Shown: positions 7,031 through 46,552 of the stretch, in pieces
Layout: every line of letters starts with the position of its first letter
Numbering within the stretch: position 1 is the first letter of the stretch
Source of the DNA: Barthelona sp. PCE
Taxonomy: Eukaryota
Length of the DNA: 64,000 bases
Assembly: GCA_040285745.1 (NCBI GenBank)
Contig: JAUFOR010000008.1
Span: 1,240,001 to 1,304,000 of the forward strand
Direction of reading: 5' to 3'
The notes under the pieces: model-generated
Databases searched by the model: none
Told to the model about the DNA's origin: nothing
Seen by the model: only the letters and a program-made list of their open reading frames with translations
Translations under genes and position numbers: made by a program

Positions 7031-7322
7031 GATGAATTGAGATTAAAGAAAGGAGAAAAAAGTATATTCAAGCTGTTATATACATGGTGGCATTCCGAAG
7101 ACCACCATGTTGTACGTTTTACCCACCTTACATCACATATTTTTGCGTTTCACGCCTTAAAAAAAAAAACTACCAAAAATTGGATTTTTTGTGAAATAGT
7201 TTAACGTGGATACTACGACAATACAGGATTCTAGAATATTTGGGAGGGTATGGCAGTATTTTACAGGCTTAAACGTACAAGTGCATAATCACCAAACAAA
7301 TGTTGTACTAAACAGTATTTAT

Positions 7323-7976
7323 TTACTTCCTACGCTTCAGTTCGTTGGCCAACCAGTCAAAGCCCAAATAAATTGAACGAACATCATTCAATGCAGAGCA
7401 AGGTTGAGCAAACCAAGTTTGAGTGAGTTTGTCAAGCTCGACAACCTTAACAACTTCTCTGGGATCAAGAGCATCGGGGAGATCTTGCTTGTTGATGAGA
7501 AGCAACACAGTACATTCTGCCAAACGAGGATCGGACAAAGACTCATGTAATACACACTTGACACATCCTTCTTCACAACCGACACCACCACAGTTAAGAC
7601 GGTTGACATCAGCTGAGTCGATAACGAAGACTACGGCATCTGTATCATCATAATAGTAGTTCCAAAGGTTTCTAAATCTAAAAATTAGTTAGGGTCATAT
7701 TATTATCAGTACACAAATAACTTTGTTAAATGCTCTGGCTTAAGGTATTCCATACGTCTTTTGGCCACCAATATCGTAACAATTAATCTTGAGAGAACCG
7801 ATTTCCAGATCAGTTGCTGAAAACCCAACAGTAATTCTTGTGTCAATGCTAGATTCATCGACGTACTTGAGACGCTTGATGATTGCGGTCTTACCAGCAC
7901 TGTCCAGACCAATTAGAACGATTTTGGCTTCAATTCTCGATAATGCGTTCAAAACTCTTGAAATTAACTTTCCCAT
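7323..7976 (-). CDS. ARF/ARL-family small GTPase, 191 aa, two exons (7976-7756, 7677-7323)
   Basis: MG start, GLDSAGKT, DIGGQ, NKQD, CSA motifs; splicing restores GGQKTFRNLWNYYYDDTDAVVFVIDS. Confidence 0.92.
7678..7755 (-). other. Spliceosomal intron (78 nt) in the ARF/ARL gene
   Basis: GTATGG…CCCTAACTAATTTTTAG; removal joins the two ORF halves in frame. Confidence 0.9.
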
Positions 7977-8374
7977 TGCTTCTTTTGTTGCTGTTTAAGG
8001 CTAAGAAAATAAAAATATAAAGGATAACTCCGTGTTTAAAGGGAGAAACTATTCTGCAAAGCTGAGGTTACAGTTGGAAGCATTCGCACGGTGTCACACT
8101 CCTTTAATGGCTACTCAATGATGCTAAAACCATACTTAAGTCCTTCAACGCACTTCAACAAAGAGAATGGAATATACTAAACCATTGACATATTAGCACA
8201 ATAATTAACTGGTTAACCACATTTTACTTGCATCACAGTTATCAGTTGATTCTCAGAAATTCATAGTAAGGTGAAATTGTATTGTTTTCTCCTTTTCTTC
8301 TCATAGCGAAGTTTTAACGTTCTTTTTGGATAAATTTGATAAATACACGGCATGAAAGTTCTTTGATGCAAAAT

Positions 8375-10675: not shown

Positions 10676-11229
10676 TAGAAACAATAAAAATTATTCAAGA
10701 AAAGTTGAGGATCATTTTTCACTACATACACCAGATTTTAAGCATCTGCTACCCCCATACTCATCGTTCACTGCTGGTCCTGATCAGGAAGATCCTGCAA
10801 ATGATTTTGAACAGAGAATGGAAGAACGTACTTTATTTAATTCTTATACTGAAGTAGGTTTATTGACGTCGGGGAACGCTCACGTGGGAAGGCTCGCCTT
10901 CACGTGTAGAGGGTGTTTCGTCCGGGAAGTGGCCTAAAACCTTTTTTTTTTAAAACCGTATCGGGTCCTACGGACACCTACTACACATGACGGTTCGCTT
11001 CGTCCCCCTCCGCTGTTTACTACCTCAAGTATAAAGTCTGAAGGCTAGCGCCTGTATGTCACCATCACAATTTTTCGGTTTCCTATTTACTTATTTGTTC
11101 TATTTAGTAATTGAAATACTGCTATTTTCAGATGAATGGAATTCCAAACTATGGTAGCCCCGTATGCGGCACCATATCCGAACTTAGATCTCTGTTCCCG
11201 TTAACATGGACTTGACTGGAAGAAAATCA
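10676..11229. ncRNA. Candidate structured non-coding element, copy A (conserved flanks around a branched hairpin core at 10844-11034)
   Basis: Collinear similarity to 44666-45262 including a 31-nt identical block; no shared reading frame; self-complementary core. The repeat is directly visible, RNA function is inferred. Confidence 0.6.
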
Positions 11230-11259: not shown

Positions 11260-13437
11260 CTATATGACTGCTGTATTGTTCATCATTGCATGATAATTGG
11301 GCATATGATACTCAACGATGGACGCCTCTGCCATAAACGAAGGAAGGTGGAACCTTTCCACAGTGGGATTCGTTGATTCTGGGTCTTGCTCAACGTTGTA
11401 TGTTTTCAACACCATTGTCTTGGTTTCTTCTTCGTAAATAACTTCCTGAACAACGTTATTAGGCATATTTACGCTGTGAATATCGTTGCCAATATTTGGT
11501 AAAATAGTATTTGTAAAAAATCGCATTTCAATAACGCCATTAACAATGGATACCTTATTAATACCTTGATCTACTTGAATGTACGAATCACCTATGAAAT
11601 TAAAGAAACAGTTACCATCCACTTCATCAACATCTGAATATTTATATATCAAAACGGGTTCCAAAAAAATTCCTGTTGACCAATCTAAACAATGCATATA
11701 CTGTTCCTCACCATCATTATTGTATTTATATGTAACAAAGAGCTGGTGGTCAGCTGTATCTGTTAATGGATGATGACAGAAGACTACATTCGAAACATCA
11801 TCGCCATGATGAAAAGTGATGTGCTTTTGAACCTCAACATCATTATTATTGATCAGCAATTGTAAAAAATGTGTTGAATTAGTACAACTAACACACACAG
11901 AACTTCCAGTGACTGAAGGCTTGCAATCATTTATGTACTCATTTGGTGGAAGCTCCAAAACTTTTGTATTACCAAGATAACCTTGACAAACATTTTCATT
12001 ATACTCAATAAAAAATGGTAACCCAAGAACTAAGCTAACATAACTCAAAAAGCCATCATTTTCAAAAGGAGTTATTATTGGTTTTGATTCTGAGCCTTCC
12101 CAGTGTATTTTAACTATTTCTGGATCTGGTCTTGCATCACACTGTGCAATCATAAAGAAATGCTCTTCCTCAAATGGGTGCATCGATAGTTCTCTGTAAT
12201 TCTTTTCGAACATTAAACTATCGTTAGTCATAACGCTTTTATGTGTGACGATTCTTTTTTCTTTGAAGTAAAAGTAACACTGTCTTTTCATAGTGCTGTC
12301 TGTAAAATGTGCTGTACCATCATACATAACTCTGTGAGGCCAAAAATTTTGCAATCGAATCACCTCGTTATTGACATTTCTAAACTTTATAGGACCAAAA
12401 ACACCCGTTGCATTACAAGTTCCTAAAAACTGGCATTGTTCATTATGAAAAGAATTCGCCAAGTCAAGGTGTTTTATATTATCAAATTGAATATATTCAC
12501 TGCATAAATCACCAGTTGACGACTTAAGCTCCCCGTTTTCAATATGAACAACAGTACAAATAGAGCTATTATAGAAAAGCGCAGAAAATTCATCTTGTGT
12601 CAATGTGAACAAGGAAAAACAAGAACAGTAAGATATTTTCAACTCTACTAACTGTGGGAATCTTTCCAATAGGTCAACACGGTTTCGTTTACGGTCAAAA
12701 ATGATCAATTCTTCAAATCCTCTGCCAAATGAGGCAAAACAAACACATTCAGCATTGTCACATCCAATACAGCTTTGATTATGGACACCTTCTAGCTGTA
12801 CGATATCCGGCTCATGAGCCTCGTCCATATCATCTACGCAGAAATTGTAGTGGAATAACGAAAAACCATTTTCATAATTGCTCATTAATACATATTCAAT
12901 GGAACAATTGCTGTTGGTGGTGTAATGGTTGTATTCTCCAAGGCACCGGTACCGTTCTGTTAGAATATTGAGAATGTAACAATGAGTCGATTCTCCATTC
13001 TGGTGTTCTTCATCAACCTCTGCAATAGAAAAAAAAATGTGGTTCTCATCTAATGGAACAAATTCGCTCGATACATATTTTTGTAAATTATCCAAATCAT
13101 CAAAAGGGAAACGAATCTTTCTGTTTGTGTGTTCATCACTGTTAATTTCGTTGAAATACAGGATTTCAAGATCAGTTAATTGATTATTTTCGCTAAAATG
13201 CTGTTCAACGATCATATATCCTGCTCCAGCTTTTCGCTTGTAATAATACTGAAGTGATTCACACGTTTCTTCAACATATCCACAAAATTCTTCCCCATCA
13301 ACAGCATCAATGAGATTGTGTAAATGAGTGTCTTCTCTAGTTTTGACCATTCTAACACCCTGACCTTCAAAAATAATTTGCCCCTCGGGAAAGGCCCCGA
13401 TGATAAGGTCATCCTCGAATTTACGGATACGAGGCAT
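11260..13437 (-). CDS. Orphan AT-rich, beta-strand-like protein (725 aa)
   Basis: Long ATG-initiated ORF with no recognisable family motif. Confidence 0.85.
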   Translation of the reverse strand: MPRIRKFEDDLIIGAFPEGQIIFEGQGVRMVKTREDTHLHNLIDAVDGEEFCGYVEETCESLQYYYKRKAGAGYMIVEQHFSENNQLTDLEILYFNEINSDEHTNRKIRFPFDDLDNLQKYVSSEFVPLDENHIFFSIAEVDEEHQNGESTHCYILNILTERYRCLGEYNHYTTNSNCSIEYVLMSNYENGFSLFHYNFCVDDMDEAHEPDIVQLEGVHNQSCIGCDNAECVCFASFGRGFEELIIFDRKRNRVDLLERFPQLVELKISYCSCFSLFTLTQDEFSALFYNSSICTVVHIENGELKSSTGDLCSEYIQFDNIKHLDLANSFHNEQCQFLGTCNATGVFGPIKFRNVNNEVIRLQNFWPHRVMYDGTAHFTDSTMKRQCYFYFKEKRIVTHKSVMTNDSLMFEKNYRELSMHPFEEEHFFMIAQCDARPDPEIVKIHWEGSESKPIITPFENDGFLSYVSLVLGLPFFIEYNENVCQGYLGNTKVLELPPNEYINDCKPSVTGSSVCVSCTNSTHFLQLLINNNDVEVQKHITFHHGDDVSNVVFCHHPLTDTADHQLFVTYKYNNDGEEQYMHCLDWSTGIFLEPVLIYKYSDVDEVDGNCFFNFIGDSYIQVDQGINKVSIVNGVIEMRFFTNTILPNIGNDIHSVNMPNNVVQEVIYEEETKTMVLKTYNVEQDPESTNPTVERFHLPSFMAEASIVEYHMPNYHAMMNNTAVI

Positions 13438-13764: not shown

Positions 13765-15994
13765 TTGAATTGCCTGCTTTACATATTGCACCGTCATTTG
13801 CCACCTAGAGCTGTTGTGGTGGCAACACGCCATATTACAGCTTCAAAGCCACTGAAAACACGACTAAGAACACACAATCATCGAGAAAAAGGATCTCGGC
13901 GCACATTGTCAAAACGAATATTTCCTTCGCATTGTAGCCTGGATATGACATTTACACCTCAGCTAGGGTTGACAACACACGATTATACGAACCAAAAAAT
14001 TTATCCTCACCATAGACAGGCAGAAGCGTGCAAAAAACAGCAAGGGTAGGATAAGATCAGTCAACCACACGCACAGAAGCATTAGATTTTACAATATTCG
14101 GAAAAAAAGAGAGCTTTCTTCATAAGACTACGATATGACCCTGGAACATGAATCAACACTATCGCTGCATCAAGTACGCGACACAGCACAACTTTAAAAA
14201 AGAAGGGTTCGCAAAAGGGTAAAAAAAGTTTTTTTAACCTCATTCTTAGCAACTTATCTTCTCTTTTAAGAATTTTTGTTGGCATCTATAGATATTTTTG
14301 TATATTTTACGGCTGAGCAAGGTACATACGAAGATGTACACGTGGGTTAACGTTTTTTACCCAATTTGCAGGGGACCACCTGCCATGAATATATACTTTC
14401 TACAAGTATTATGCTTTTTGTTTTATTACTTCATTCGTATGTTGTGTGCTCCTCAACCTGAAAAACTCACATTTAGTAACTTTATGCATTACCATCCAAC
14501 TACCATTACTCCCATGGACTCCAAGCTTTACAACGCCCGTTCTATCGTCGCTTTCGGCGCTCAAGTCGGTGACGAGGGCAAGGGAAAGTTCGTTGACCTT
14601 CTTTCATCCATGGGTCGTTCACCTTCCAAGAAGGGTTCATCTTACGACATCACTACTCATGTCAAATATTCCGTTCGTGCTAACGGTGGTCACAACGCAG
14701 GCCACGTAATCAAGATCATGAAGGGAGACGAGCTTATCTCATTCGACGTTCACCTACTTCCCTCAACAATTTTCCATGACGATATCATCTCTGTTATGGG
14801 TGCAGGAATGGCTATCTACATGCCTCAGCTCGTAAAGGAGCTCGAGCGTGCCCGCAACGAGCTGGGTATTGAGCGTACTCCCGAGCAGCTCAAGATCTCT
14901 TCTCGTGCTCACATCATCATGCCTTGGCACATCACTGAGGACTGCATTAACGAGGCTAGCCGTACAGGTAAGAACAAGATCGGTACAACCAAGTCCGGTA
15001 TCGGCCCCGCATACGCTGACAAGTGCGCCCGTTCCCGTGCCATGCGTATGGGTGATCTTTGTATGCCTGTTGCTGACATACAGGAGAAGATCTTCCGTGT
15101 TTGTCGCTACAAGAACGTCGTCCTTGGCGCTCTTGCTGCCGAGCACAAGATCGAGTTCGAACCTTTCGACCCTCAGCAGGTTTTCGACAAGTTCATGGAA
15201 CTCAGATCATACGTCATGCCCTATGTCTTCGAAGGCGCTGAGGCCATGCTCCGTGAAGCCAGTAACCGCGGTGACTCCATCCTCGTCGAGCTCGCCAATG
15301 GTTTCTTTCTCGACATTGATTGGTCCACATCTCCCTACTGCACATCATCACACACAACGACTCTTGGTATTCCCCAGAGCACAGGTCTTCTTCCCAACTC
15401 ACTCGACGTCATCCTCGGCGTAAGCAAGGTATACTCTGTTCGTGTTGGTGCAGGCCCTCTTGTTGGAGAATCAGAGATTGAATCCGAGACCGCTGATGCA
15501 ATTCGTGTTGTTGGAAACGAGTTCGGTACAACCACAGGTCGTCCCAGACGTTGTACATGGCTCGATCTTGTTGCCCTCAAGCACTCACTCACAACTTCCG
15601 GCGCCAATATCTGTGCGCTAACGATGCTAGATGTCCTCAGTCAGTTCAAGGAGATCAAGATTTGCACAGCATACGAGCTTCCTGATGGCACAATTCTGGA
15701 CCACGTTCCTTTTTCGGCTCAACAGCAATTTGATGCCAAGCCTATTTACACAACTATGCCCGGCCCTGGAGAGGTTGCCGATGTAAGGCAGTACGATCTG
15801 CTCCCCCAATCTGCCAAGGATATCGTTGAGTTCATCGAAGAGTTTACTGGCGTGCCGGTACACTTCGTATCAGTTGGCCCTGAGCGTGAAGCGTTCATGA
15901 CTAAGCCTCTGCCCCTTGACTTCCTCGCCAACTAGGCCCCTGTACATCTCGACCTTTACCCCTGCCTGCTATACCTCAGTAAAAGAAAAACAAT
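13765..15994. repeat. Right arm of the ~2.23-kb inverted duplication
   Basis: Reverse complement of 8375-10604 with at least three substitutions (14017, 14021, 14182). Confidence 0.97.
14514..15935 (+). CDS. purA: Adenylosuccinate synthetase, copy 2
   Basis: Translation identical to copy 1. Confidence 0.95.
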   Translation: MDSKLYNARSIVAFGAQVGDEGKGKFVDLLSSMGRSPSKKGSSYDITTHVKYSVRANGGHNAGHVIKIMKGDELISFDVHLLPSTIFHDDIISVMGAGMAIYMPQLVKELERARNELGIERTPEQLKISSRAHIIMPWHITEDCINEASRTGKNKIGTTKSGIGPAYADKCARSRAMRMGDLCMPVADIQEKIFRVCRYKNVVLGALAAEHKIEFEPFDPQQVFDKFMELRSYVMPYVFEGAEAMLREASNRGDSILVELANGFFLDIDWSTSPYCTSSHTTTLGIPQSTGLLPNSLDVILGVSKVYSVRVGAGPLVGESEIESETADAIRVVGNEFGTTTGRPRRCTWLDLVALKHSLTTSGANICALTMLDVLSQFKEIKICTAYELPDGTILDHVPFSAQQQFDAKPIYTTMPGPGEVADVRQYDLLPQSAKDIVEFIEEFTGVPVHFVSVGPEREAFMTKPLPLDFLAN

Positions 15995-16157
15995 TTTGTT
16001 TCGCCTCTCCTCTCTTCATTGCTTATGTGCACGTATTATAGGGTGCACATATCTTGGCCTCAACTGTTTTTGAGAATACTCAGTTGATTGTAGTAAACTT
16101 GGATTTTGGGAATTACTCCTTTTCAACAACTTTCAACAACTTACTTTGTGTATAGAA

Positions 16158-22626: not shown

Positions 22627-23844
22627 ATGATCACCACGGTGAATTACATCTTAAACACTGACACATTCCAGTTTGAGGAGCAGGAGATCTGGACCGACGA
22701 CAATGGGTTCTTTTTCACCGATGAAAATGCAGCTAGTGAGATTCCACAGGAATACGTTCTCCCTAAGGATGTTACAGGGGATGCTATGCTTTCTGAGTTT
22801 GAAGACAACCTTAAAAAGTTGAGGCTTGATAATATTCCGCTGAATTCAAGAACCGTTGATCTTGCACTTCCAGTGCGTCAGTTCAAGCGTACAGCATCGG
22901 CTCTAACCAGGCTTCCCGTCGCATCTGAGCCCGAGGAAGATCCTGATGTAGTCCAGGAGTTGCCGGTTAAAGATGAGTCACCCGTCATAAGAGAGTTTCA
23001 CAATCTTGACGAAGACGAGATGGAAGAGCGGTGGAACGATTGGGTTCCTGCACCAGGTGATCCAGTATGGATATATTGGTGTGATAGTTTCGCTCAGTTC
23101 TATCCGGGTACAGTTAAAGAAGTCCAGGATGACCCGGTGGATACACTCCATGTGTCGTATGATGACTGGGGCACAGACTGGGACGAATGGATCTCTCTTG
23201 ACCGCAGTTATGTGATGGGTGTGAAGCATGTTGATAAGCTTATCACAGATTTCAACGTCAGGAACCAGATGGAAGGGATTGGGACACAGAAGACTCGATC
23301 AGAGCCAGTCATTAGGAGGACAAGCCATAGATCAGTATCAAATGTGTTGAAAAAAAATTTTGCCTTCAGCCACTGCGTAGTTTCATTTTTTGCAAATGAC
23401 AGGAACGGGCCCATATGTATCAGTGCGTTTACGATCCGTGAGCTCATCAGTTTCCTTAAAGACAAGGAGGTTTCCAGCAAAAAGATCTCAAGTTTGTTAG
23501 AGTTGTTCGTAAACGAGTTTAAAGAGTTTATTGCTGATTGTATTGAGAGCTTCAAGACCGGGTATGCGGATTACATCGATGTACATGAAGAAAAGAAAGT
23601 AATGAGAGATGCTTATGCACTTGTAATGGAAAATTATGAATTCCTTCGATCGTTGGCAGTATCACGCTACGATGGTCTCCCAGCCGAATACATGCTCGTC
23701 ATTACTGCGCTATCCATGTCAGAGTCTAATGCATCAGATTTCAAGCGTTTTCATTCAATAGCACCTGTCTTTGAAGAATTTCTGTCACAGGAATCTTATC
23801 ATCCAGCTGCTTATACACTGTCTTTATTCTCGCTAGAACCTTGA
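22627..23844 (+). CDS. Tudor/chromo-barrel domain protein
   Basis: PGDPVWIYW…FYPGTVKEV…LHVSYDDWGTDWDEWI. Confidence 0.7.
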   Translation: MITTVNYILNTDTFQFEEQEIWTDDNGFFFTDENAASEIPQEYVLPKDVTGDAMLSEFEDNLKKLRLDNIPLNSRTVDLALPVRQFKRTASALTRLPVASEPEEDPDVVQELPVKDESPVIREFHNLDEDEMEERWNDWVPAPGDPVWIYWCDSFAQFYPGTVKEVQDDPVDTLHVSYDDWGTDWDEWISLDRSYVMGVKHVDKLITDFNVRNQMEGIGTQKTRSEPVIRRTSHRSVSNVLKKNFAFSHCVVSFFANDRNGPICISAFTIRELISFLKDKEVSSKKISSLLELFVNEFKEFIADCIESFKTGYADYIDVHEEKKVMRDAYALVMENYEFLRSLAVSRYDGLPAEYMLVITALSMSESNASDFKRFHSIAPVFEEFLSQESYHPAAYTLSLFSLEP

Positions 23845-24915
23845 TTTGCTGCTGCGGCGTGAGTTAGGTTTTGAAGTAATGGTTGTCGAAACAGCTCCAC
23901 CATTGTTGTTTTCTGCCGTCATCTCAGCGATAACAACCTTTCTCTGCCAAGTCTCAACTTGCTTCTTCAGGGTTTGCAGGTCAGCATTGATCTGTATATA
24001 TTCATAAATGGAAGGACCCTCACCATGCTCTGATTGCAATTTTAGGGTAGCAGCCTCTGTCTCCAAGGAATCATTTTGTTGCATGATGCTATCAATATCG
24101 TCAGTAAGCTTAGAGATTAGCTGTTTCTTAGTGTTGATCTCTTTCTTTAACTTTGTATTGTCAACTAGTAGCACGCTAAGTTTATCCTTCAGAGTATTAA
24201 GTGCTTGAGTCATATTACCACTAATAAGTTTCAAACCGAGTAGCTCTGCGTTCTTCTGCTCAAGAGTGTCAGCGAACTGTCTTGTTTCGATACGTAACTC
24301 CTCAAAATCAATTTGTTGAAAGTTTTCTCCAAAGTTTTGCTTGTTATGCAGTTGAAACTTTGTTTTTTTGATATTCTTACGTAAATTGCTGATCTTTAAA
24401 CGCATTTTCTCGATCTTTGACTTCTTTCCCTTGAGTAAATTTTTGTAATAACGCTTCACTAATTCAATTTCACTATCTGAACCCAAAATCTTCTCCAGGT
24501 CTATTGTCTCTTTCTTAATCTCAGTGCATCGCTGCTTGCAGCTCTCGAGCATTGCAATAAGCCTGCTACGGAACTGTTCTCCTTGAACCTTGACACTTTC
24601 ACCGTCATCACGAAGATCATCGAGTTCCTTCTGAATTGTTTGGTATTTTTGATCCAGGTTGAGGAAGAAGCGGCCCTTCTTACGAATCTCGCTCTCATTA
24701 ACGGCTGCAACTTGAGCAGCATGTCTCTGAAGGTATGATTCAAATAGAGTATTTTCACGCTGCAAGAACTCATTGTTTCGCATGATAGCGTCGATCTTTT
24801 CCTCCACAATAGGTAAATCTTCATTATACGGAAGGTACAATTCAAAAACCGATTTTGAAGACTTTGCAGAGTATACTGATGGTGCAGATCTGTTTCCACC
24901 GCCAACTACAGACAT
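23833..24915 (-). CDS. CCDC113: Cilia/flagella-associated coiled-coil protein CCDC113/CFAP263-like (DUF4201)
   Basis: ENTLFESYLQR, LNLDQK, KIEKMRLK, GENFQQIDFEELRIE, KNAELLGLK. Confidence 0.8.
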   Translation of the reverse strand: MSVVGGGNRSAPSVYSAKSSKSVFELYLPYNEDLPIVEEKIDAIMRNNEFLQRENTLFESYLQRHAAQVAAVNESEIRKKGRFFLNLDQKYQTIQKELDDLRDDGESVKVQGEQFRSRLIAMLESCKQRCTEIKKETIDLEKILGSDSEIELVKRYYKNLLKGKKSKIEKMRLKISNLRKNIKKTKFQLHNKQNFGENFQQIDFEELRIETRQFADTLEQKNAELLGLKLISGNMTQALNTLKDKLSVLLVDNTKLKKEINTKKQLISKLTDDIDSIMQQNDSLETEAATLKLQSEHGEGPSIYEYIQINADLQTLKKQVETWQRKVVIAEMTAENNNGGAVSTTITSKPNSRRSSKSRF

Positions 24916-37247: not shown

Positions 37248-38012
37248 ATGAACCATTACACCAACCAGATGCTCAAAAAGTCTCACGTGTCGCGTTCTAA
37301 GCAGTCAGTTGCTTCAGATAGAATCGCCAGGAGCTGGGTTCAAGCTTTTTGTCTAAAACGTGGCAATGAACTGTTCTGTGAGGTTGATGCAGACTATATT
37401 CAAGACGACTTCAACCTCATTGGCCTTCATAACATTGTCCCGTTTTTTCAACAGAGCAAACGCATGATTTTAGATCAATTCGATAGTACCAAATACAACA
37501 ACACACAATTATACAGCTTTTCTGAGGGTGCCCGACTGCTTTACGGACTCATACATCTGCGATTTATTCTTACAACGAAGGGGCTCTTGAAAATGGCAAA
37601 GAAACATGTATCCGGTCATTTCGGAATTTGCCCTCGCGTAAAGTGTAACAAACAAAAGGTAGTACCCGTGGGACTACACGACAACATTGGAGAAAGCAAT
37701 GTTCGACTTTATTGCCCCAAATGCAATAATGTTTATGAGCCTCCACATTCTCGTCATAAATCTGTTGACGGTGGCTTCTTCGGAACAACTTTTCCTCACC
37801 TTTTCCTGTTGGAGTTCCCTAAATTCAGAAAATTTCAGTTATATGAAACGTTTACACCAAAGATTTTTGGCTTTAAAATTAGAAAACCAGATGCTGAACC
37901 AAAAAAAGAAGAGCAGCCTAAACCAAACATGACAGAACCTACAAACGATAACAGGAATAGCTTGCCTAACCTCCTCCCTACTAATTCAACTGTTAAGAAC
38001 GTCGTGCAGTAG
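37248..38012 (+). CDS. CSNK2B: Casein kinase II regulatory subunit beta
   Basis: FCEVDADYIQDDFNLIGL, LLYGLIHLRFILT, CPRVKC…YCPKC, DGGFFGTTFPH. Confidence 0.93.
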   Translation: MNHYTNQMLKKSHVSRSKQSVASDRIARSWVQAFCLKRGNELFCEVDADYIQDDFNLIGLHNIVPFFQQSKRMILDQFDSTKYNNTQLYSFSEGARLLYGLIHLRFILTTKGLLKMAKKHVSGHFGICPRVKCNKQKVVPVGLHDNIGESNVRLYCPKCNNVYEPPHSRHKSVDGGFFGTTFPHLFLLEFPKFRKFQLYETFTPKIFGFKIRKPDAEPKKEEQPKPNMTEPTNDNRNSLPNLLPTNSTVKNVVQ

Positions 38013-38433: not shown

Positions 38434-41130
38434 ATGAAATACTTTTCTGTTGTTAAAAATAGTTTTGAAGAGGTTAAAATAGCTTTCCTGAGGTATTGTG
38501 AGGATAAATCACTGAAATGGAAAAAATCAGATGGGATTGAAGGGATTAATGATCAATGCTTTTACATTTATACTAAAGAGGCTAATAACAACTATTTAGA
38601 TTTAGACACTACCGAAAGACTTAAGTATATTTACCAGAACGACAAAGTTTTTGGAGTTATCAAACCAGAAGAATTTGAAAATCATTGTATTGTTATATTA
38701 CGTGATTCAGAAGGTATTAAAATCCTTAAGGATCTATTTTTAGACTTCGATATTGATTTTCCACGGTTTTATGCTGCTAAAATGGGAATGTTCAATGACC
38801 AAATTGCCACAATTACCGAGTACGAACAACTTCAGTGGTCAACTATTAAAAAGAAACCGTTCAAGATGGTAAAGAGCACTTCTGATTCGGAGGGATTGGA
38901 TCTTGAGGAGAGTTCTTTGGGTTTATACAGTGAAATACACTTTAAAATCAATACTGAAGTTGAAGAAAATGCGCAAAGTCAGAAACAGAATGCAGAAGAA
39001 TTTTTTTGTGACTCGTACAGAAAAGAAGCTATATACACACCGTATGCAATTGGTTTTAACCATACTGAAACCAGTGATCAATTGATAAGAAAAATTATTT
39101 GTTGTTATAACAATGAGCAACTGCCACTTGATATTGTACAGCCATGTTTAAAGAAAGTTTCGCTTGAAAATGATCATTTCCTTAGCTATTTTAGCTGTGT
39201 TGATGAAGTAGAGCTGAATATTCCATCTGAAATGATTGGTGAGGATAACTCAGTTTATTGTACCAATAAGATAGGTTTTTTATCATTATTTGCTGCAATG
39301 GTTGCAGTAGAGAGAGATATTGATTCGTCTGAGGATCTAATTATCAATTTAAGTACTGTCTTGGAATATTTTGATAAGTTCAAACAGATTGCAGAATGTT
39401 TTAGAAAACATTCCGAAAATTGTTTTTTTATTGCCAAATTTGAAGGAATTCAAACAAGACCAATTAGGTTTTCAACAGCTGATGGGGCTCCTCTACAACA
39501 GAATTTAATTCAGAATCCAATTAGGGCCATTAGTCCCTACCATCATGGAGGAGCAAACGGATTTGATACAACGTTTCGATCTAAACCCATTGAAGCAGCG
39601 GATGATTTAAGAAGTTGGGTTAATAGTATTTTGGATTTAAGTCATCCTAATTTCTTTATTCTAAGCTGTGTTTTAGGAATGTTGATGAAGCATTTAAAAG
39701 TTGGTGGGAAAATCTTTTTGCATAATGTTACTGTTCTTCATCGAGTTGATAACGTATGTGTTGTTTATTCTGATGGTGTATGGAGAAGATTTACGAATAA
39801 TTTCATTGAAAATATTAATGATAGGGTCGAACAAATATTTGAACTGAGCAGAAGAATATTCGAAGATATTTTTCCTGAAGATAGCATCCCTTTATATCAA
39901 TCTAAGAACATGATGAAAAGAAAGGAAGATGGAAAAACCACTAAAGTTCCTAGAATTGGAAAAAATTGGTTACCAAAGTTTAAACATAAACATATGGCAG
40001 AGAGTGAAGTCAACTGTACTATTGCTTTATGCAAGCAAAATGTTTTGCTTGATAAAGATTGTGTTTATCCACTTGACGGTAAAGAAAATTTTGAGCTTTG
40101 TGATATATTATTATTTGATCGAACAAACAGAAAACAGTATTTCCTTCATGTCAAGAACGATAAAGATGACGAAAAAGTTTTTAATCAGTTACACACCTCT
40201 TATGATATGATCAATTCATCCTTTTTCAAAATGAATGATGAGTTGAAGGATAAGGTAGAAAACAGTATCAAAAATCGATTAACATCTACTAATGATGATT
40301 CTAATACATTTATCACTAATTCCGACTTAAATCCAGATAAGTATTGTTTTGGAGTTGTTTTTGTTACTAATCTTCCGACTAGAGTGTTTGAAGGAGAAAG
40401 TATAAGTCTAAAGCTAAGTGTATTGCGTGCAAAAAGAATCATTGGTAATCGGTTTATACTGGGAACTTTTCCCGCTCAACATGCAGAGTACAGATGGATT
40501 GAAAAAAAAATACCATGCATCAGACCAATTATAAGAATGCCCAATTTAAGTGATTACAACCTTATAATAAGTAAGAAGTTTTGTAATGCAATTCTGGATG
40601 ATGAAACAATCTTCTATGATTTGTTGAAAGATGTTAACGACAATCGTTTATTGAACAGTAACTTAGTTTATGTGCTTGATAGATCGATTAATGAGCGTGA
40701 TAAGTATTCAATGTTGGTGTTAGAGTTTAAGCATGCTTTTTCTTGTAATAATGGACAGAGTTTACTACATTTTTTTGTTCCCATTGTTTGCATGATGGTT
40801 GAGGGCAAGAAGCAGTTTATTCCATTCATGCACTTCCATTCGATGTGTCCGTTGGAATACAATCCTCATCTTAATTTATCAACAGTTATAAGTGATTTGG
40901 TAGAGAGAAATAGACACATACAAAAAAAAACAAAAACACCAAAAGGCTGTATGTTTTACGATATTTCCAATGAAAAATGGAAAAATGAACTATTTGAGAT
41001 TGTAGGTGCTGTCAAACACATTAATGATCATTCTAAGTTTTTGCATCCGTTCAAATTGAATCCTTCACTTAATCGTGCCCGTAGAATACAATCTGATGGT
41101 ATTGACCCAAAAATTCAAGCAACTCAATAA
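38434..41130 (+). CDS. AT-rich 898-aa protein with a TIGR04141/DUF6119-like putative nuclease domain
   Basis: DGVWRRFTNNFIENIN…ESEVN…LLDKD…FELCDILL…FLHVKN…VFNQLHTS. Confidence 0.6.
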   Translation: MKYFSVVKNSFEEVKIAFLRYCEDKSLKWKKSDGIEGINDQCFYIYTKEANNNYLDLDTTERLKYIYQNDKVFGVIKPEEFENHCIVILRDSEGIKILKDLFLDFDIDFPRFYAAKMGMFNDQIATITEYEQLQWSTIKKKPFKMVKSTSDSEGLDLEESSLGLYSEIHFKINTEVEENAQSQKQNAEEFFCDSYRKEAIYTPYAIGFNHTETSDQLIRKIICCYNNEQLPLDIVQPCLKKVSLENDHFLSYFSCVDEVELNIPSEMIGEDNSVYCTNKIGFLSLFAAMVAVERDIDSSEDLIINLSTVLEYFDKFKQIAECFRKHSENCFFIAKFEGIQTRPIRFSTADGAPLQQNLIQNPIRAISPYHHGGANGFDTTFRSKPIEAADDLRSWVNSILDLSHPNFFILSCVLGMLMKHLKVGGKIFLHNVTVLHRVDNVCVVYSDGVWRRFTNNFIENINDRVEQIFELSRRIFEDIFPEDSIPLYQSKNMMKRKEDGKTTKVPRIGKNWLPKFKHKHMAESEVNCTIALCKQNVLLDKDCVYPLDGKENFELCDILLFDRTNRKQYFLHVKNDKDDEKVFNQLHTSYDMINSSFFKMNDELKDKVENSIKNRLTSTNDDSNTFITNSDLNPDKYCFGVVFVTNLPTRVFEGESISLKLSVLRAKRIIGNRFILGTFPAQHAEYRWIEKKIPCIRPIIRMPNLSDYNLIISKKFCNAILDDETIFYDLLKDVNDNRLLNSNLVYVLDRSINERDKYSMLVLEFKHAFSCNNGQSLLHFFVPIVCMMVEGKKQFIPFMHFHSMCPLEYNPHLNLSTVISDLVERNRHIQKKTKTPKGCMFYDISNEKWKNELFEIVGAVKHINDHSKFLHPFKLNPSLNRARRIQSDGIDPKIQATQ

Positions 41131-41355
41131 ACAAAAGACTTTTTCTGCTTTTTCAAAATGGCTATAAGTTATTCCTTGATGATATGAGTGCATTTGAGCA
41201 AGAAAACATCTTATACTAAAGCATTTGGGTTTTTTAGGTTTTTTTTCTTTACATTTGGGCTTTCTTGAGGATCTTCCTTCCCAAAAGGGATGAACTTTGC
41301 TATTTAGAGTTAGTTTGAATTCAGATTTTCTAAGGTTCAAACATGGTCCATTGAT

Positions 41356-43740
41356 ATGTCCGTTATGACTCTTATTACCCTTTTACAATTTTCGATTGCT
41401 GACTTCTCAGCAAGCAGCCTCTGTAATCACCTTCGAGGCTGTTTAACAAACAATAACGATTACAAACCTAATATCCACAAGGTGCAGTGCATTAGCAACT
41501 CAGATCTTTGTTTGGATAAATTTTCTTCCCTATTTACCGACTGGGACGACTATGGTGATCTCGATGATGGCATTACACGCGAGATATACCTGTTTTTTGC
41601 TGCTAATTCAGATGAGTTAGTTCTTGCTCTGTTACCTTCTTTAGAAGTGGATTTTTTCAGTGGATTACCTCCTAACAATGAGGTTTTTGCTCGTATAATG
41701 CGAGAATTGGCCCTGATTCCGTACGGATCACACCCTACCTGCTTTCTTGGAAAAACTGAAATACCCTTTGACGATGTTCTTGAAAAAGCCAAGCCAATCA
41801 GCACATGTTGCATTGAATATTCTCAGCCACAGCGCTTTACACTGATAGATGACCCTTCTACCTCAATGGATATCTCTCAAGCGCTTATAACATCTACTAG
41901 TATCAAGCTAACAGTGCAGAGCACCGATTTTTACCGGTGTTGTTACCTCATTGCTTTCTGTCAGAAGAATCAGCGCTCCGTTACTAATCAAAACGATGTT
42001 TATGCAAAATTAGCCTCTGCCTTGCATAATAAGTGCTTTTCCAGCGTTAGCGAACTTAAAGCATGGAATATCAGCACATTCTGGGCAAAAAAAAAAAAAT
42101 TTCTTCACTCTGGGAGGTTTTGCATTCGTAATCAAGTTGCAATTATGCTTAATATATCTTGTGCCTATCTCTGCCTCGGTGATATCAGCCGCAATCAAGC
42201 TGTTGCTGATTTTTTGAAAGGCAATTTTAAATGCACGGAGTGGAATGTAAGCGTTCGCCCAAAGTTTTCTACCAATGTTTTGGAGCTGAAAATGAAGTTC
42301 CCTTTGTGCTCAAACAATTCCAACTTTTTGGATTATCTAGCAAGCAATGGTTGTTTTGATGACTACATTGTTACTGAATTTTCTGGCATTTTTCCGAAGA
42401 AGTTTTTAACTTGCAAAACATCATTTAGTCCCGAAAATCTTCTGAAATGGCAGAGAAATATCTTAAAGAATAGCTTTGATCAACGTTTGAAGCAGCTTTT
42501 TTGGGATAATACCTCTGCTGAGTGCCGTGAATTAATGAACAACTATTTCCTCCCTGAACACATTCGTTCAGCAAAACTTTCCGATATTACCATAGACTCA
42601 TCACACTTTCCATTTTTTCAAAACCATTCAATACGAAATGTTGTTCACTTCACTGAATGTATGGGAAATAAGGTTGCTGGTCAACTCGTGAAGTCTATCA
42701 ATATGGATGCTGTGAGTGTTATAAATCTCAGAGACAAAGACTTAAAGCTTCAATCATCCAACTCACAAAGCGTTGAACTCTGTGATATAGCTGAGTTCAA
42801 AGATGGACTGCTTTTCCTGCACATGGTTAAGAACATTAAAAAATGCAGGGAAGTCATTCCTCAAACAGCAAAAGTGATTAGCCTCTTTCAAACAGAGCCC
42901 ACCAGATTTCTTTCTGTGTTGAAGTCTGTACTGCTGACTGCAGGTGCCAGCAAAGTTGGTGGTTTTGATTTCGAGTTGATTGATGCGCTTGAGCTGAAGG
43001 ATATTCGATTTGTAGTCAGTCTTTTTGGATTAAGGACCGAACTCTCCACGGACTGTATATCTTTGTTGTTGACGCTGAACACTGCTTCTGGTGGCCTTGT
43101 CCATGTAACGCACTTGCCAACTCAGGAACAAGTCTACGTGTACGGTAGTGTTCCTTCAAGAACTGATGTTTTCCACTTCAGTCGTAGTCTAGATCATGTG
43201 GACAACTGGACAACTCTCAAGCAAGTTACGCTGATCTGCAGGCTTCTTTATGATTTCGATGTGTTTTCGTGTCCAAAGTACGGAAATTTGGAAGTGAGGG
43301 ATATTATGTATTACTCTGATGATATCATTAATGATGATGATGTGATTATGCTGCTTTTCTGTGTCCAGCTGCAGGGTAGGGAAGAACAGTACTATGTTCC
43401 ATTGTTTAAGCTGAAAGGTTACCATTTCGCATTCAACAATCACTCAATTCCATTGATTTCAACCAATTCGTTCAATGCAAGCTGCCAATCCTTGGCAGAA
43501 GCAGCAAAGACATCTTTTAAGGAGATGTATAAACAATCAACGGAGAATATTCAAGTAACTTATGCTGGTTATGTACCGCACGGGAAATGCCAACATTTTA
43601 CTGCGCTTGAACCGTTCAAGTTGCGCAGCGTGCGACCCTTATCTTGCGCATCTGCACATAAGAAGGCGAATAGACAGAACCGACGTACTAAACTACGTGC
43701 ATCAAAGTGTGCATCTCGTAGATCGATGCGATCTATGTGA
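41356..43740 (+). CDS. Diverged tandem paralog (794 aa) of the preceding gene
   Basis: LRDKD…VELCDIAE…LHMVKN…VIPQ, plus shared YYVPLF/QFIPFM and PFKL C-terminal motifs. Confidence 0.55.
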   Translation: MSVMTLITLLQFSIADFSASSLCNHLRGCLTNNNDYKPNIHKVQCISNSDLCLDKFSSLFTDWDDYGDLDDGITREIYLFFAANSDELVLALLPSLEVDFFSGLPPNNEVFARIMRELALIPYGSHPTCFLGKTEIPFDDVLEKAKPISTCCIEYSQPQRFTLIDDPSTSMDISQALITSTSIKLTVQSTDFYRCCYLIAFCQKNQRSVTNQNDVYAKLASALHNKCFSSVSELKAWNISTFWAKKKKFLHSGRFCIRNQVAIMLNISCAYLCLGDISRNQAVADFLKGNFKCTEWNVSVRPKFSTNVLELKMKFPLCSNNSNFLDYLASNGCFDDYIVTEFSGIFPKKFLTCKTSFSPENLLKWQRNILKNSFDQRLKQLFWDNTSAECRELMNNYFLPEHIRSAKLSDITIDSSHFPFFQNHSIRNVVHFTECMGNKVAGQLVKSINMDAVSVINLRDKDLKLQSSNSQSVELCDIAEFKDGLLFLHMVKNIKKCREVIPQTAKVISLFQTEPTRFLSVLKSVLLTAGASKVGGFDFELIDALELKDIRFVVSLFGLRTELSTDCISLLLTLNTASGGLVHVTHLPTQEQVYVYGSVPSRTDVFHFSRSLDHVDNWTTLKQVTLICRLLYDFDVFSCPKYGNLEVRDIMYYSDDIINDDDVIMLLFCVQLQGREEQYYVPLFKLKGYHFAFNNHSIPLISTNSFNASCQSLAEAAKTSFKEMYKQSTENIQVTYAGYVPHGKCQHFTALEPFKLRSVRPLSCASAHKKANRQNRRTKLRASKCASRRSMRSM

Positions 43741-43901
43741 TGGACTGTGAGGCAAGTAGTTTACTTCGTGGGTGTGATTAGGATTGTTTCCTTCCGCAAC
43801 TGTCTGTTTATAAGTAAATATTTATTTTTATATAAAACCTTTTTTCAAATAAGTACACTGAGAGGCACCCACATGGGTCTATAAGCTTTATTAAGCACAG
43901 A

Positions 43902-44366
43902 TTAGCAACGTTGCTGTCTGACACCGTGCTTGAAGATATAGAAGAAGGGGACGGTCTCGCCAGCCTCGTTCTCCTTCCATTCAGAAAAGACAATGGAACC
44001 TTCCTCGTTCATAGACTCACCAGTGTAGAACTCCAAATCGGAAGCCTTGCCCAGAATAAACTTGGCAGCGGCAGGGGCCTTGGCCATGAAGTCGGCAACC
44101 TCATCGTTCCTACCCTCGCCCTCGAGTGTCTCCTTAACCTTACGCATGAAGGCCTTAATGTAGCTCTTAAGCTGCTTCTTGTTGAAACCAGTAGAAACCA
44201 GACGGTTGTAGTGGACAATGTTAATGATTTGTTCATCTTCATCATCGGGGTTGGTAGTCATGGCACCCTCGAACTGCAAAATAGCACCATCACAGAGTTC
44301 CTGGTGGGGAAAAGCATCGGTGCATAGTTCGTCACCTTCAGCTATGATGCAAGTATAAAGAATCAT
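43902..44366 (-). CDS. TCTP: Translationally controlled tumour protein
   Basis: MILYTCIIAEGDELCTDAFP, INIVHYNRL, FYTGESMN, FKHGV. Confidence 0.93.
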   Translation of the reverse strand: MILYTCIIAEGDELCTDAFPHQELCDGAILQFEGAMTTNPDDEDEQIINIVHYNRLVSTGFNKKQLKSYIKAFMRKVKETLEGEGRNDEVADFMAKAPAAAKFILGKASDLEFYTGESMNEEGSIVFSEWKENEAGETVPFFYIFKHGVRQQRC

Positions 44367-44665
44367 TGTACTTATAAGTTAAACAAACGAAAAAGGTTGA
44401 ATAATGTAGAAGAAGGAAAAAAAATTAAACTTCTTTGTAAAACGACATAATTTCTACATTCACGAGACAAAGCAACTCAATACGCCAGTTTCAACAGTGA
44501 AGATATGCAAAATGCAAACATATAGAGAAGAATTTCTTTAAGAGTATCCAAACAAGATTCTATTAACATGTAGACTCACAATTTCCCATATCATATGGAA
44601 AAAATGTCAAATTTACTGTTTAAAAAATCATTTAAAATGTTAAAGCATTTTAAACTCAATTTACT

Positions 44666-45262
44666 TAGAAACAGAATTTTTTTAAGCATGGGTAAAAAGT
44701 TTGAGGCGTTTTTCAAAGAATCTAGCAAAAAAAGAGCTGCAGAATCAGGAATTGGTATCGTTCACGAATGACCCTAATACGAAGATTCTGCAATTGATCT
44801 TCAAGAGATAATTTAACAGAACGTATGCAGGTGTATTTCAATTTCTCACCTCGTAGGAGGTTGTAAATTTACTTCGGAGTTAGACACTTGTACGGGAGTT
44901 GCGAGCTCCCTCGAGTGCTGTGCTTGCACTGAGAATTGTTCTAGAGCCCTTTTTTTTAAATAAAAGGGGAGAAAGAAATGATGTAAGTACTCACAGAGTA
45001 CAAGAGGGAAGATCGCGTGTCTACTCCTCAGTAGATTTACTCCTACGAAATAGCGTGTTATTCACAAGCGTGCCATTTTAAGGTTTCCTATTTATTTTAT
45101 TTGTACTATTTAGTAATTGAAATACTACTATTTTCAGATGTATGTTCCAAACTGTGAAGAAGGTACCCGTTTGCGGCACCATATCCGAACTTAGATCTCT
45201 GTAAAGAATCTGTTTATTCTCCCTTACTACCCGTTAACATGGATGAGACTGGAAGAAAATCA
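44666..45262. ncRNA. Candidate structured non-coding element, copy B (branched hairpin core at 44851-45048)
   Basis: Same flanking blocks as 10676-11229; TCGTAGGAG…CTCCTACGA outer stem with several nested helices. Confidence 0.6.
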
Positions 45263-45541
45263 ACAATTGAAACACTGTAATTTTTTTTCCAGATGTTAAA
45301 GTACACACTTCTCTGTTACCAAAAGTGTAAGTGAGAATGTTGAGTCAATTTTCTGACTAACTATCATCTTACTTAAAAGAAGTCAATAATTTAAGAACAG
45401 GTTTCCCTATAATCAAATATGCAACATTAAATGTAAAAAATCCTTTCTATTGTGGCACTTAATTCTTCAAATCAAGCAAAATTTTTACCAGTACAACAAA
45501 AGTTGGTGGAATACGTTTTATCACCCCCTTATCTTATTAAA

Positions 45542-46552
45542 ATGATTTATGCTGTCAACGCGTGTATAAACTTCGCTATTCTCGTCTTGACATCGGTCTA
45601 CTCCATCTTTATCATTCACAAGCTGAAGAGCCGAAATGAAAATCCTCTCACAAAGTTTTCTGCAAGCGCTAAAATAACGGCTTCGATTGTACTCATCATT
45701 TCAGCCTTTGTTCTAGTTGTAGTATTTGTGTTAGACTTTTTTAACTTCACAACACTTTTCTTCCTTTGTTTGATTGCAGCAATCGGTATCCCTGCTGTTA
45801 TGCTCTTCATATTCTATCCCCTCTCAACGATTTTAACCAGCAAAAAGATTAAAATTCCAGGTCTTGGACAGGTATTTATTGCAAACACTGTTGGTTTCTT
45901 TATTTCTGCAGCAATCATTGCGGTTTTCCTCGTGTACAGGAAGAATGAGTTCATCATAATGTTTGTTGTATGCTCAATTTGTTGTTATTTCATTTCCAAT
46001 CTAAATTTTGCATCTACATTATCACTTTTCGTCTTTGTTAGTGTATTCTCAATCTACGAGCTCATTCAGTACAACCTCACCCCTTCGAAGCACCTTTGCT
46101 CCATTGCCTGTGAGTGGGACACATACCCTCCCGTATTGCCTACATCTCTCTACCTTTCCATTCAGGGTACATCTGCCTTCAGTATCACGTCAGTGATCGT
46201 CACGGGTGCGGTCCTTGCCCACTTCCGAAAGCTTGACGAGAAGCTCAACGGTAGATTCCTCATTAAGGGTTACGTAGGGTTGTGTGTAGCATTTGCTGCA
46301 GGTTTATCTTTGGCAATGTATACCAATCACGGCTTGCCCTTCCTGCCCTTCTCTGCCGTCATGCTGCTCATCGTCCTTGTTTTGGAGAATGTGAGTTTGA
46401 GAAAGCGTGGAAAAGTACACAAAACTTTGGATAAGGTGGAGACGAACAAACTAGTTACAGAAGCTGAAATGGATCCTATTAGTATTGAAATCGAGGTTCA
46501 GAGCGATGTTGAAGTGGAGGACGATATTTCAGAAATTTCAAAACATCGTTAA
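45542..46552 (+). CDS. Signal-peptide-peptidase/presenilin-like membrane protein lacking the catalytic motifs
   Basis: Multi-pass topology with FSIYEL, LPTSL, FSITSVIVTG and HGLPFL at the positions of YD, LPxKL, LGxGD and QPAL. Confidence 0.6.
   Translation: MIYAVNACINFAILVLTSVYSIFIIHKLKSRNENPLTKFSASAKITASIVLIISAFVLVVVFVLDFFNFTTLFFLCLIAAIGIPAVMLFIFYPLSTILTSKKIKIPGLGQVFIANTVGFFISAAIIAVFLVYRKNEFIIMFVVCSICCYFISNLNFASTLSLFVFVSVFSIYELIQYNLTPSKHLCSIACEWDTYPPVLPTSLYLSIQGTSAFSITSVIVTGAVLAHFRKLDEKLNGRFLIKGYVGLCVAFAAGLSLAMYTNHGLPFLPFSAVMLLIVLVLENVSLRKRGKVHKTLDKVETNKLVTEAEMDPISIEIEVQSDVEVEDDISEISKHR

Follow-up and report, generated by a model that had tools for sequence, protein, structure and literature searches.

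How does a gene of an otherwise bacterial protein family come to lie among the nuclear genes of a protist, and does it lie there alone or with a second copy beside it? The question is raised by a 64,000-nucleotide (nt) stretch of the genome of the metamonad Barthelona sp. PCE (contig JAUFOR010000008.1, positions 1,240,001 to 1,304,000 of the forward strand; the window), in which two long open reading frames (ORFs), ORF1 of 898 amino acids (aa) and ORF2 of 794 aa, follow each other between the genes for the casein kinase II beta subunit (CK2-beta) and the translationally controlled tumour protein (TCTP). An earlier reading of these letters, made without database searches (the sequence-only reading), took them for a laterally acquired, duplicated and C-terminally extended pair of DUF6119/TIGR04141-like nucleases with a possible role in defence. 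By its profile matches ORF1 is a diverged relative of that family, while for ORF2 the status of a second copy is unproven, as its likeness covers about 50 residues with borderline statistics. Our best reading as a whole, to which we give a probability of about 0.6, is that ORF1 is an old bacterial acquisition that was later extended and duplicated and that encodes a putative nuclease.

ORF1 as a diverged DUF6119 relative

The Pfam family PF19614 (DUF6119) matched ORF1 with 39.2 bits (E 4.6e-10), above its gathering cut-off of 27 bits, and aligned residues 444-621 with profile positions 338-469 of 524. A hidden Markov model (HMM) of 35 full-length bacterial members reached 52.6 bits, placing its positions 337-494 on residues 440-646, and an hhalign comparison of 11 bacterial members with ORF1 and its paralogue P0003 (described below) gave a probability of 91.8% (E 7.4e-7) over residues 436-670. 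TIGR04141 was the best NCBIfam match (29.5 bits, E 2.6e-7). The motif order that the sequence-only reading gave for the family (DGxW, ExxxN, LD, ExCD, HVK, Q) recurs in ORF1 column by column, as G-x-W, E-x3-N, L-x-D, E-x-C-D, H-V-K and Q. Three residues, E523, D557 and K574, are invariant across all 37 rows of the family alignment, in which mean column identity is just 18%; 90% or more of the rows also agree at W450, D540, E554, H572 and Q585. The family assignment therefore held for ORF1, through a Pfam score above the cut-off and the hhalign probability, and the PF19614 label is already precomputed on the ORF1 protein in a public protein collection.

Several results weigh against so simple an assignment. 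The match to ORF1 is confined to the C-terminal 40% of the family profile, and for the N-terminal 430 aa of ORF1 neither Pfam, nor the HMM, nor hhalign detected any likeness to profile positions 1-337; the TIGR04141 score, moreover, lies below the curated cut-off of 35. PADLOC and PHROGs gave no match for ORF1, and PDB sequence searches found nothing relevant for ORF1 or for the profile of the 37-row alignment. Past the end of the bacterial profile follows an extension of about 220 aa, so that the gene is indeed C-terminally extended, as had been proposed. This part matched no Pfam family, and its look-alikes in the ESM Atlas had template modelling (TM) scores below 0.5 or were short.

The extension is conserved in a second protein of the same organism. 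In a full HMMER pass against 1.84 billion representative proteins, ORF1 found one other protein, PCE1_004595 (P0003; E 5.3e-21), which is colinear with ORF1 over its full length, C-terminal extension included, at 26% identity. This full-length colinearity backs the start codon of ORF1, and five residues of the extension (C695, C717, H800, H802 and C805) are invariant between the two proteins. P0003 also brings points that speak against the reading given above: on its own it matched no Pfam family, it scored only 5.4 bits on the bacterial HMM, and it carries K at the position of E554 and lacks an equivalent of Q585. It had no PHROGs match either. Word-indexed homologue searches with ORF1, with ORF2 and, at E <= 10, with ORF1 residues 425-665 returned the queries themselves only. 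A tblastn search of plasmids with the ORF1 core gave no match, and a motif-pattern search of the genome contigs with the ORF1-family alignment gave 238 pattern matches, with no relative among them.

Distribution and neighbours of the bacterial family

Bacterial members were gathered by searching sampled genomes of five phyla and 14 control genomes. The family turned out to be sporadic, being present in 56 of the 1,905 sampled bacterial genomes (Myxococcota 24/301, Bacillota 11/401, Pseudomonadota 8/401, Actinomycetota 5/401, Bacteroidota 8/401) and in 0 of the 14 controls. Its neighbourhoods were surveyed through 127 ORFs located up to four genes away from a bacterial DUF6119 gene, at 19 loci (L166-L184). 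Among these ORFs Pfam recognized N6_Mtase (6), ResIII (6), SWI2_SNF2 (5), HSDR_N (5) and Methylase_S (3), and further phage integrase (2) and DarT (2), while PADLOC reported the type I methyltransferase (6), REase_I (4) and Specificity_I (3). The two DarT matches are to the family of single-stranded DNA ADP-ribosyltransferases, with a best E of 4.9e-56.

Individual loci give a closer view of this association. In L171 (4114-13240, Pseudomonadota) the DUF6119 gene (6965-8575) lies between hsdS and hsdR; it starts on the last base of hsdS, a one-base overlap, and is followed by two small ORFs on the opposite strand and then by hsdR, an arrangement that amounts to an insertion slot in a type I restriction operon. 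In L167 the gene is found directly upstream of hsdM-hsdS-hsdR, and in L173 it adjoins a YgjP-like gene and hsdR. In a smaller survey 10 flanking ORFs were chosen from 8 loci according to size; they matched HsdM, HsdS, a methylase (weakly), the Shedu domain SduA_C, an IS3 transposase, a UvrD-like helicase, DUF4357 and a lamin-tail domain, with two ORFs blank; the SduA_C gene is the direct neighbour of one bacterial DUF6119 gene. In bacteria, then, DUF6119 accompanies type I restriction-modification loci and defence islands as an accessory gene.

A second copy or an unrelated neighbour

The motif that the two genes were said to share, L-x-DKD…ELCDI…(H/M)VKN…Q, is present in both ORFs. In ORF1 it reads L538-x-D…E554-L-C-D557-I…H572-V-K574…Q585 (nt 40045-40188), and in ORF2 it falls into the stretch, residues 458-526, on which the best local match of every profile tried is found and which offers D460, E474, D477, H489, K492 and Q503 as candidates for the conserved residues of the family. 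Its relative position is similar in the two proteins (residues 554-585 of 898 and 474-503 of 794). We searched for it with the pattern E-x-C-D-[ILVM]-x(5,16)-H-x(1,2)-K-x(5,14)-Q, which occurs in 25 of 35 bacterial members and in 37 of 200,000 shuffles; without the final Q, the pattern is found only in ORF1 and ORF2 among the 33 long ORFs of the window. On a combined HMM, made from the bacterial members and the cores of ORF1 and P0003, ORF2 scored 5.5 bits, which none of the 1000 decoys reached in either of two sets, one of full and one of window shuffles. On the bacteria-only HMM it scored 2.8 bits, reached by 4 and 5 decoys in these sets.

The competing explanation is that ORF2 is an unrelated, lineage-specific orphan whose motif resembles that of ORF1 by chance, so that the locus holds one DUF6119-derived gene and no pair. 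We regard this as a strong contender, at somewhat less than even odds, and much of the evidence speaks for it and against a pair. ORF2 had no match in Pfam (E <= 10), NCBIfam, PADLOC, PHROGs or PDB, and the ESM Atlas returned nothing usable; it stays under the gathering cut-off of Pfam DUF6119. When ORF2 was aligned by hhalign together with its close relative P0004 (PCE1_002599), the probabilities were 1.3% against ORF1 and P0003, 0.4% against the bacteria and 2.8% against the 37 rows. Whole-protein BLASTP of ORF1 against ORF2 gave nothing significant, the high-scoring segment pair at the motif having an E of 0.19. An unrelated 234-aa ORF of the window outscores ORF2 on the bacteria-only HMM (3.1 vs 2.8 bits). 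The H-M-V-K of ORF2 is one residue longer than the H-V-K of the family, and the spacing of the motif differs from that in ORF1; the search pattern, besides, was written post hoc. P0004, which is 93% identical to ORF2, scores worse than ORF2, being reached by 31-47 of 1000 decoys on the bacteria-only HMM and by 7-10 of 1000 on the combined HMM; the differences between the two proteins cluster in the residues directly following H-M-V-K and in the last third of the chain. An AlphaFold run of ORF2 on a two-row alignment yielded an unusable model, with a mean predicted local distance difference test score (pLDDT) of 30.

Outside the motif the comparison fared no better. On HMMs of the N-terminal and C-terminal parts of ORF1 and P0003, ORF2 did no better than 266-295 and 391-435 of 1000 shuffles, respectively, and with the latter figures the claim of shared C-terminal motifs could not be upheld. 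Nor is the adjacency of the two genes conserved: P0003 and P0004 lie on two different contigs, neither of which is that of the window, so ORF1 and ORF2 do not form a conserved module. The proposal of a tandem pair of DUF6119 proteins goes further than these results carry in the case of ORF2, which is without a profile match and whose likeness is limited to the motif region.

Against an unrelated ORF2 stand the combined HMM, which ranks it above all 2000 decoys, the rarity of the pattern among shuffles and window ORFs, and the position of ORF2 next to the sole DUF6119 gene of the window, with a protein of similar size and a motif at a similar place; in addition P0003, a proven homologue of ORF1, is equally poor on the bacterial profile (5.4 vs 2.8 bits). 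When the decoy scores are weighed together with the adjacency, the comparable lengths of the two proteins and the corresponding place of the motif in each, we lean slightly towards ORF2 being a very old, degenerate duplicate of ORF1.

Predicted fold and chemistry of ORF1

AlphaFold was run on ORF1 with the 37-row alignment. Mean pLDDT was 49, with values of 60-91 over approximately residues 400-680 and below 50 in residues 1-430. In the better-modelled part, three short strands (432-454) carrying the G-x-W are followed by a helix (455-479); a helix at 523-533 begins at E523; a strand at 558-562 is preceded by E554 and D557, and the next, at 567-575, ends in H572-V-K574. A helix that includes Q585 (579-594), a strand (637-645), a helix (657-673) and a last strand (674-681) complete the module. 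This predicted order of elements is that expected of a restriction-endonuclease-like core and suggests compatibility with a PD-(D/E)xK-type fold. On the strength of the conserved residues and the predicted fold, we consider a PD-(D/E)xK-type nuclease the most likely, if putative, chemistry of ORF1.

A different possibility is that ORF1 keeps the DUF6119 fold and is no nuclease, and that it would bind nucleic acid or a ligand in a regulatory or structural role, in bacteria and protist alike. We think this unlikely, while recognizing that a number of results favour it over the nuclease reading. A Foldseek search of the PDB with the ORF1 model gave 0 matches at E <= 0.001 (best E 0.14), hence no significant structural match to any nuclease, and a search of viral models gave 0 matches at the same threshold; all these scores are lowered by the large unmodelled parts of the query. 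The ORF1 motif reads D…H-x-K, with H where the classic (D/E)-x-K motif has D or E; the second carboxylate may come from E554 or E523. Without E554 and Q585, P0003 is still an intact ORF of 927 aa. PADLOC matched 0 of 6 bacterial DUF6119 members, and our literature search found no paper describing DUF6119/TIGR04141 and no characterised member, so that no activity is known from the literature searched.

Against a non-nuclease, E, D and K are invariant in 37 very divergent sequences, as a catalytic centre would predict, and the bacterial members sit in restriction loci. Restriction-fold nucleases also dominate the leading Foldseek matches. Among the 46 PDB rows listed, 18 belong to nucleases with, as we take it, the restriction-endonuclease fold (XPF, Hef, Mus81-Eme1, Shedu, LmuA, Can2, Card1, Hachiman, NucS, FokI, HincII, BstEII and CdiA-CT). 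The PD-(D/E)xK-like core that had been suggested from the motifs is compatible with the predicted fold of ORF1; the structural comparison, with 0 Foldseek matches at E <= 0.001, is suggestive at most.

Origin and age of the acquisition

A tree built from the core module pairs ORF1 with P0003 as its sister (support 98/88). Their long branches lie outside the whole set of 35 sampled bacteria and point to no donor, which counts against a bacterial acquisition; no sampled bacterial core is more than 24% identical to that of ORF1. The sporadic occurrence of the family in bacteria makes a bacterial origin plausible, and the low identity, together with a paralogue that is only 26% identical, marks the acquisition as an old one. 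Of the earlier proposal of a laterally acquired and duplicated gene, the bacterial origin thus remains plausible and the duplication is accounted for by P0003, whereas the tandem copy, ORF2, is unproven.

A source other than bacteria, be it a virus, another eukaryote or an ancient eukaryotic gene lost elsewhere, would fit both the position of the protist proteins in the tree, with no nearest donor, and their N- and C-terminal regions, which are without a bacterial counterpart. It appears improbable to us, as there was no viral structural match and no PHROGs match, no other eukaryotic or viral protein turned up among the 1.84 billion representatives, and the family is spread over five bacterial phyla. 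Bacterial contamination or mis-assembly, for which one might cite the lowest third-position GC content of all window ORFs and a family that is otherwise bacterial, is excluded for practical purposes by the eukaryotic genes 421 nt upstream and 161 nt downstream in one gap-free stretch, by 0 bacterial proteins at E <= 0.001 to ORF1 among the representatives, with none close to ORF2 either, by the low identity to every sampled bacterial core, by the occurrence of paralogues of both genes in the same organism, on two further large contigs, by an assembly that the genome paper's text describes as long-read and decontaminated (PMC11316075), and by a contig identical to 161 nt of ORF2 in a run that also carries TCTP, a run that is possibly the source sample and so not independent.

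The locus and its eukaryotic setting

The features of the locus are collected in Table 1. Both genes are uninterrupted and co-oriented, in agreement with the sequence-only reading, which had called them large and intronless, and the 64-kb window contains no N. The gaps are 421 nt between CK2-beta and ORF1, 225 nt between ORF1 and ORF2 and 161 nt between ORF2 and TCTP, as against a median of 120.5 nt (32 gaps between 33 long ORFs on both strands) in this very gene-dense window; gaps wider than usual had been noted before, and the difference is real but modest. The prokaryotic accessory DNA that is the usual setting of DUF6119 is not found here, where CK2-beta and TCTP are the flanks and there are no restriction-modification neighbours.

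Table 1. Coordinates in the window, and paralogues elsewhere, of the features discussed.
Feature	Position	Strand	Basis
CK2-beta, upstream flank	37248-38012	+	Pfam PF01214, E 5.7e-66
ORF1 (P0001), 898 aa, diverged eukaryotic DUF6119/TIGR04141 relative	38434-41130	+	
ORF1 residues 440-646, matching the C-terminal half of the DUF6119 profile	39751-40371	+	Pfam, bacterial HMM, hhalign
Putative catalytic signature of ORF1: E523, D540, E554-x-C-D557, H572-V-K574, Q585	40000-40188	+	37-row alignment
C-terminal extension of ORF1, residues 681-898 (~220 aa)	40474-41127	+	beyond the end of the bacterial profile
ORF2 (P0002), 794 aa, orphan, perhaps a degenerate and very distant relative of ORF1	41356-43740	+	
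ORF2 stretch resembling DUF6119: L458-x-D…E474-L-C-D477-I…H489-M-V-K492…Q503	42727-42864	+	best local matches of the profiles
TCTP, downstream flank	43902-44366	-	Pfam PF00838, E 2.2e-38
P0003 (PCE1_004595), 927 aa, hypothetical protein of Barthelona sp. PCE	other contig		HMMER
P0004 (PCE1_002599), Barthelona sp. PCE	other contig		93% identical to ORF2, same 90% cluster

Of the 33 ORFs in the window ORF1 has the highest AT content, with a GC content of 0.323 overall and of 0.273 at third codon positions (GC3), and the description of the first gene as strongly AT-rich was therefore correct. The other 31 ORFs of the window have a mean GC3 of 0.459 (standard deviation 0.063, minimum 0.317), and the composition of ORF2 is ordinary (0.400). 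GC3 seems to track gene type in the window, from 0.587 in TCTP to 0.27-0.32 in two orphans. AT-richness was considered as a sign of recent transfer and rejected, since the divergence from the bacterial members is too deep and GC3 appears to follow gene type.

The assembly of Barthelona sp. PCE was made from Nanopore and Illumina reads, decontaminated, and comprises 8 contigs, 10.2 Mb, 40.3% GC and 5,064 proteins according to the text of the genome paper, the main part of which does not contain the words 'nuclease', 'restriction' or 'antiviral' (PMC11316075). The gene density and GC content of the window agree with this description. Two public sequencing runs of one study were listed for the segment, with shares of 0.09 and 0.06. 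Contigs from these runs cover TCTP (43859-44383) and the 161 nt of ORF2 mentioned above (42888-43048), in both cases with identical sequence, and on ORF1 they give just two pieces of 31-40 nt with 4-6 mismatches. The runs may be the source sample, so they provide no independent confirmation and nothing firm on expression. The same search listed no RNA run carrying the segment, a point against the readings of transfer and defence.

Other features of the window

The window shows signs of extreme genome compaction: the convergent ORFs at 22627-23844 (+) and 23833-24915 (-) overlap by 12 nt (23833-23844), and several further gaps measure merely 10-25 nt. It also holds a perfect inverted repeat of 2,233 nt (8372-10604 and 13765-15997, 100% complementary, with 3,160 nt between the arms), and the same 533-aa gene for adenylosuccinate synthetase (Pfam E 6.6e-122) stands, letter for letter, in both arms. 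Between the arms lies a 725-aa orphan ORF (11260-13437, -) with a GC3 of 0.317, the second-lowest in the window; it had no Pfam match and only a noise-level score on the DUF6119 HMMs.

A non-coding element of about 160-180 nt, the 'structured element' of the sequence-only reading, is present in two copies (approximately 11074-11229 and 45080-45262), with blocks that are 91-97% identical. The first copy adjoins the 725-aa orphan, and the second, copy B, which has a 26-nt insertion, lies between TCTP and the next gene. Neither copy matched Rfam, and no link of the element to ORF1 or ORF2 was found. Rfam gave no match anywhere in the window, 44400-45560 included, and no tRNA was found.

Discussion

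ORF1 is a eukaryotic, extended and duplicated version of a known but uncharacterised family. The course of events that we infer, with its direction of transfer, nuclease activity, defence role and kinship of ORF2, would be the following. The likeliest start is the uptake, long ago, of a bacterial DUF6119 gene. The gene would then have gained a C-terminal extension of about 220 aa with its Cys and His residues, diverged beyond recognition over its N-terminal 430 aa and been duplicated, with P0003 now on another contig. Residues of about 440-680 keep the C-terminal module of the family, a small beta-meander with G-x-W and then a helix-strand-strand-strand-helix-strand succession, in which E523, D557, H572-x-K574 and Q585 would make up a restriction-endonuclease-like, metal-dependent nuclease centre. 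From the association of the bacterial family with type I restriction loci and defence islands, cleavage of foreign or unwanted nucleic acid would be the likeliest activity of the protist protein. The anti-viral or anti-mobile-element role proposed earlier thus has the bacterial association with defence loci behind it, and its extension to the eukaryote is pure inference. ORF2 is a lineage-specific orphan that may be an old degenerate tandem duplicate, keeping only E-x-C-D…H-x-x-K…Q.

A bolder version can be imagined, in which a small protist genome domesticated a passenger gene of restriction loci into a small nuclear family, made up of ORF1 and P0003 together with ORF2 and P0004 as degenerate members, and in which ORF1, with the full catalytic signature, and ORF2, with its altered motif, work jointly in nucleic-acid defence or genome surveillance. 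We hold this to be a long shot. If it were true, it would be a further case of prokaryotic immunity genes reused in eukaryotes, in a free-living host with one of the smallest known eukaryotic genomes. The finding itself changes no principle; the family is catalogued, and the PF19614 label was already public. The family lies repeatedly inside or beside type I restriction-modification operons in the sampled bacteria, and a fixed, extended and duplicated eukaryotic version would be a further gene of bacterial defence loci to have crossed into eukaryotes. Barthelonids are already known for adaptive lateral transfers, as stated in the text of the genome paper (PMC11316075). As a very divergent natural variant, ORF1 also marks the residues of the family that seem unchangeable, E523, D557 and K574, and would be useful for a first biochemical test.

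Comparison with known systems

The nearest comparison is with the bacterial members of PF19614/TIGR04141 themselves. They share with ORF1 the C-terminal module, the motif order and the invariant E, D and K. They are, however, of about 520-600 aa as against 898 aa, and ORF1 differs from them in its unmatched N-terminal 430 aa, in its additional Cys/His-bearing C-terminal extension and in being a eukaryotic nuclear gene without restriction-modification neighbours.

Of the defence nucleases with a PD-(D/E)xK domain, Shedu SduA, Lamassu LmuA, Card1/Can2 and Hachiman HamA rank near the top when Foldseek compares the ORF1 model with the PDB (8ti9, 8ps4, 9hr5, 8q3y, 6wxw, 8zue), all with E of at least 0.3 and a probability of at most 0.41. 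ORF1 has no sequence similarity to any solved structure, and it carries H-x-K where these nucleases have (D/E)-x-K. The anticodon nucleases PrrC and RloC are passenger genes of type I restriction-modification loci, and the bacterial DUF6119 genes resemble them by position only, as in L171 and L167, whereas the protist genes have no hsd neighbours.

On the eukaryotic side, cGAS-like enzymes, STING and viperin are bacterial immune genes that were taken up by eukaryotes and have immune functions on both sides. Unlike these, DUF6119 is known here from its genes alone, in the bacteria as in the protist; what it would have in common with them is that a family of bacterial defence loci has become fixed, and duplicated, in a eukaryotic nuclear genome.

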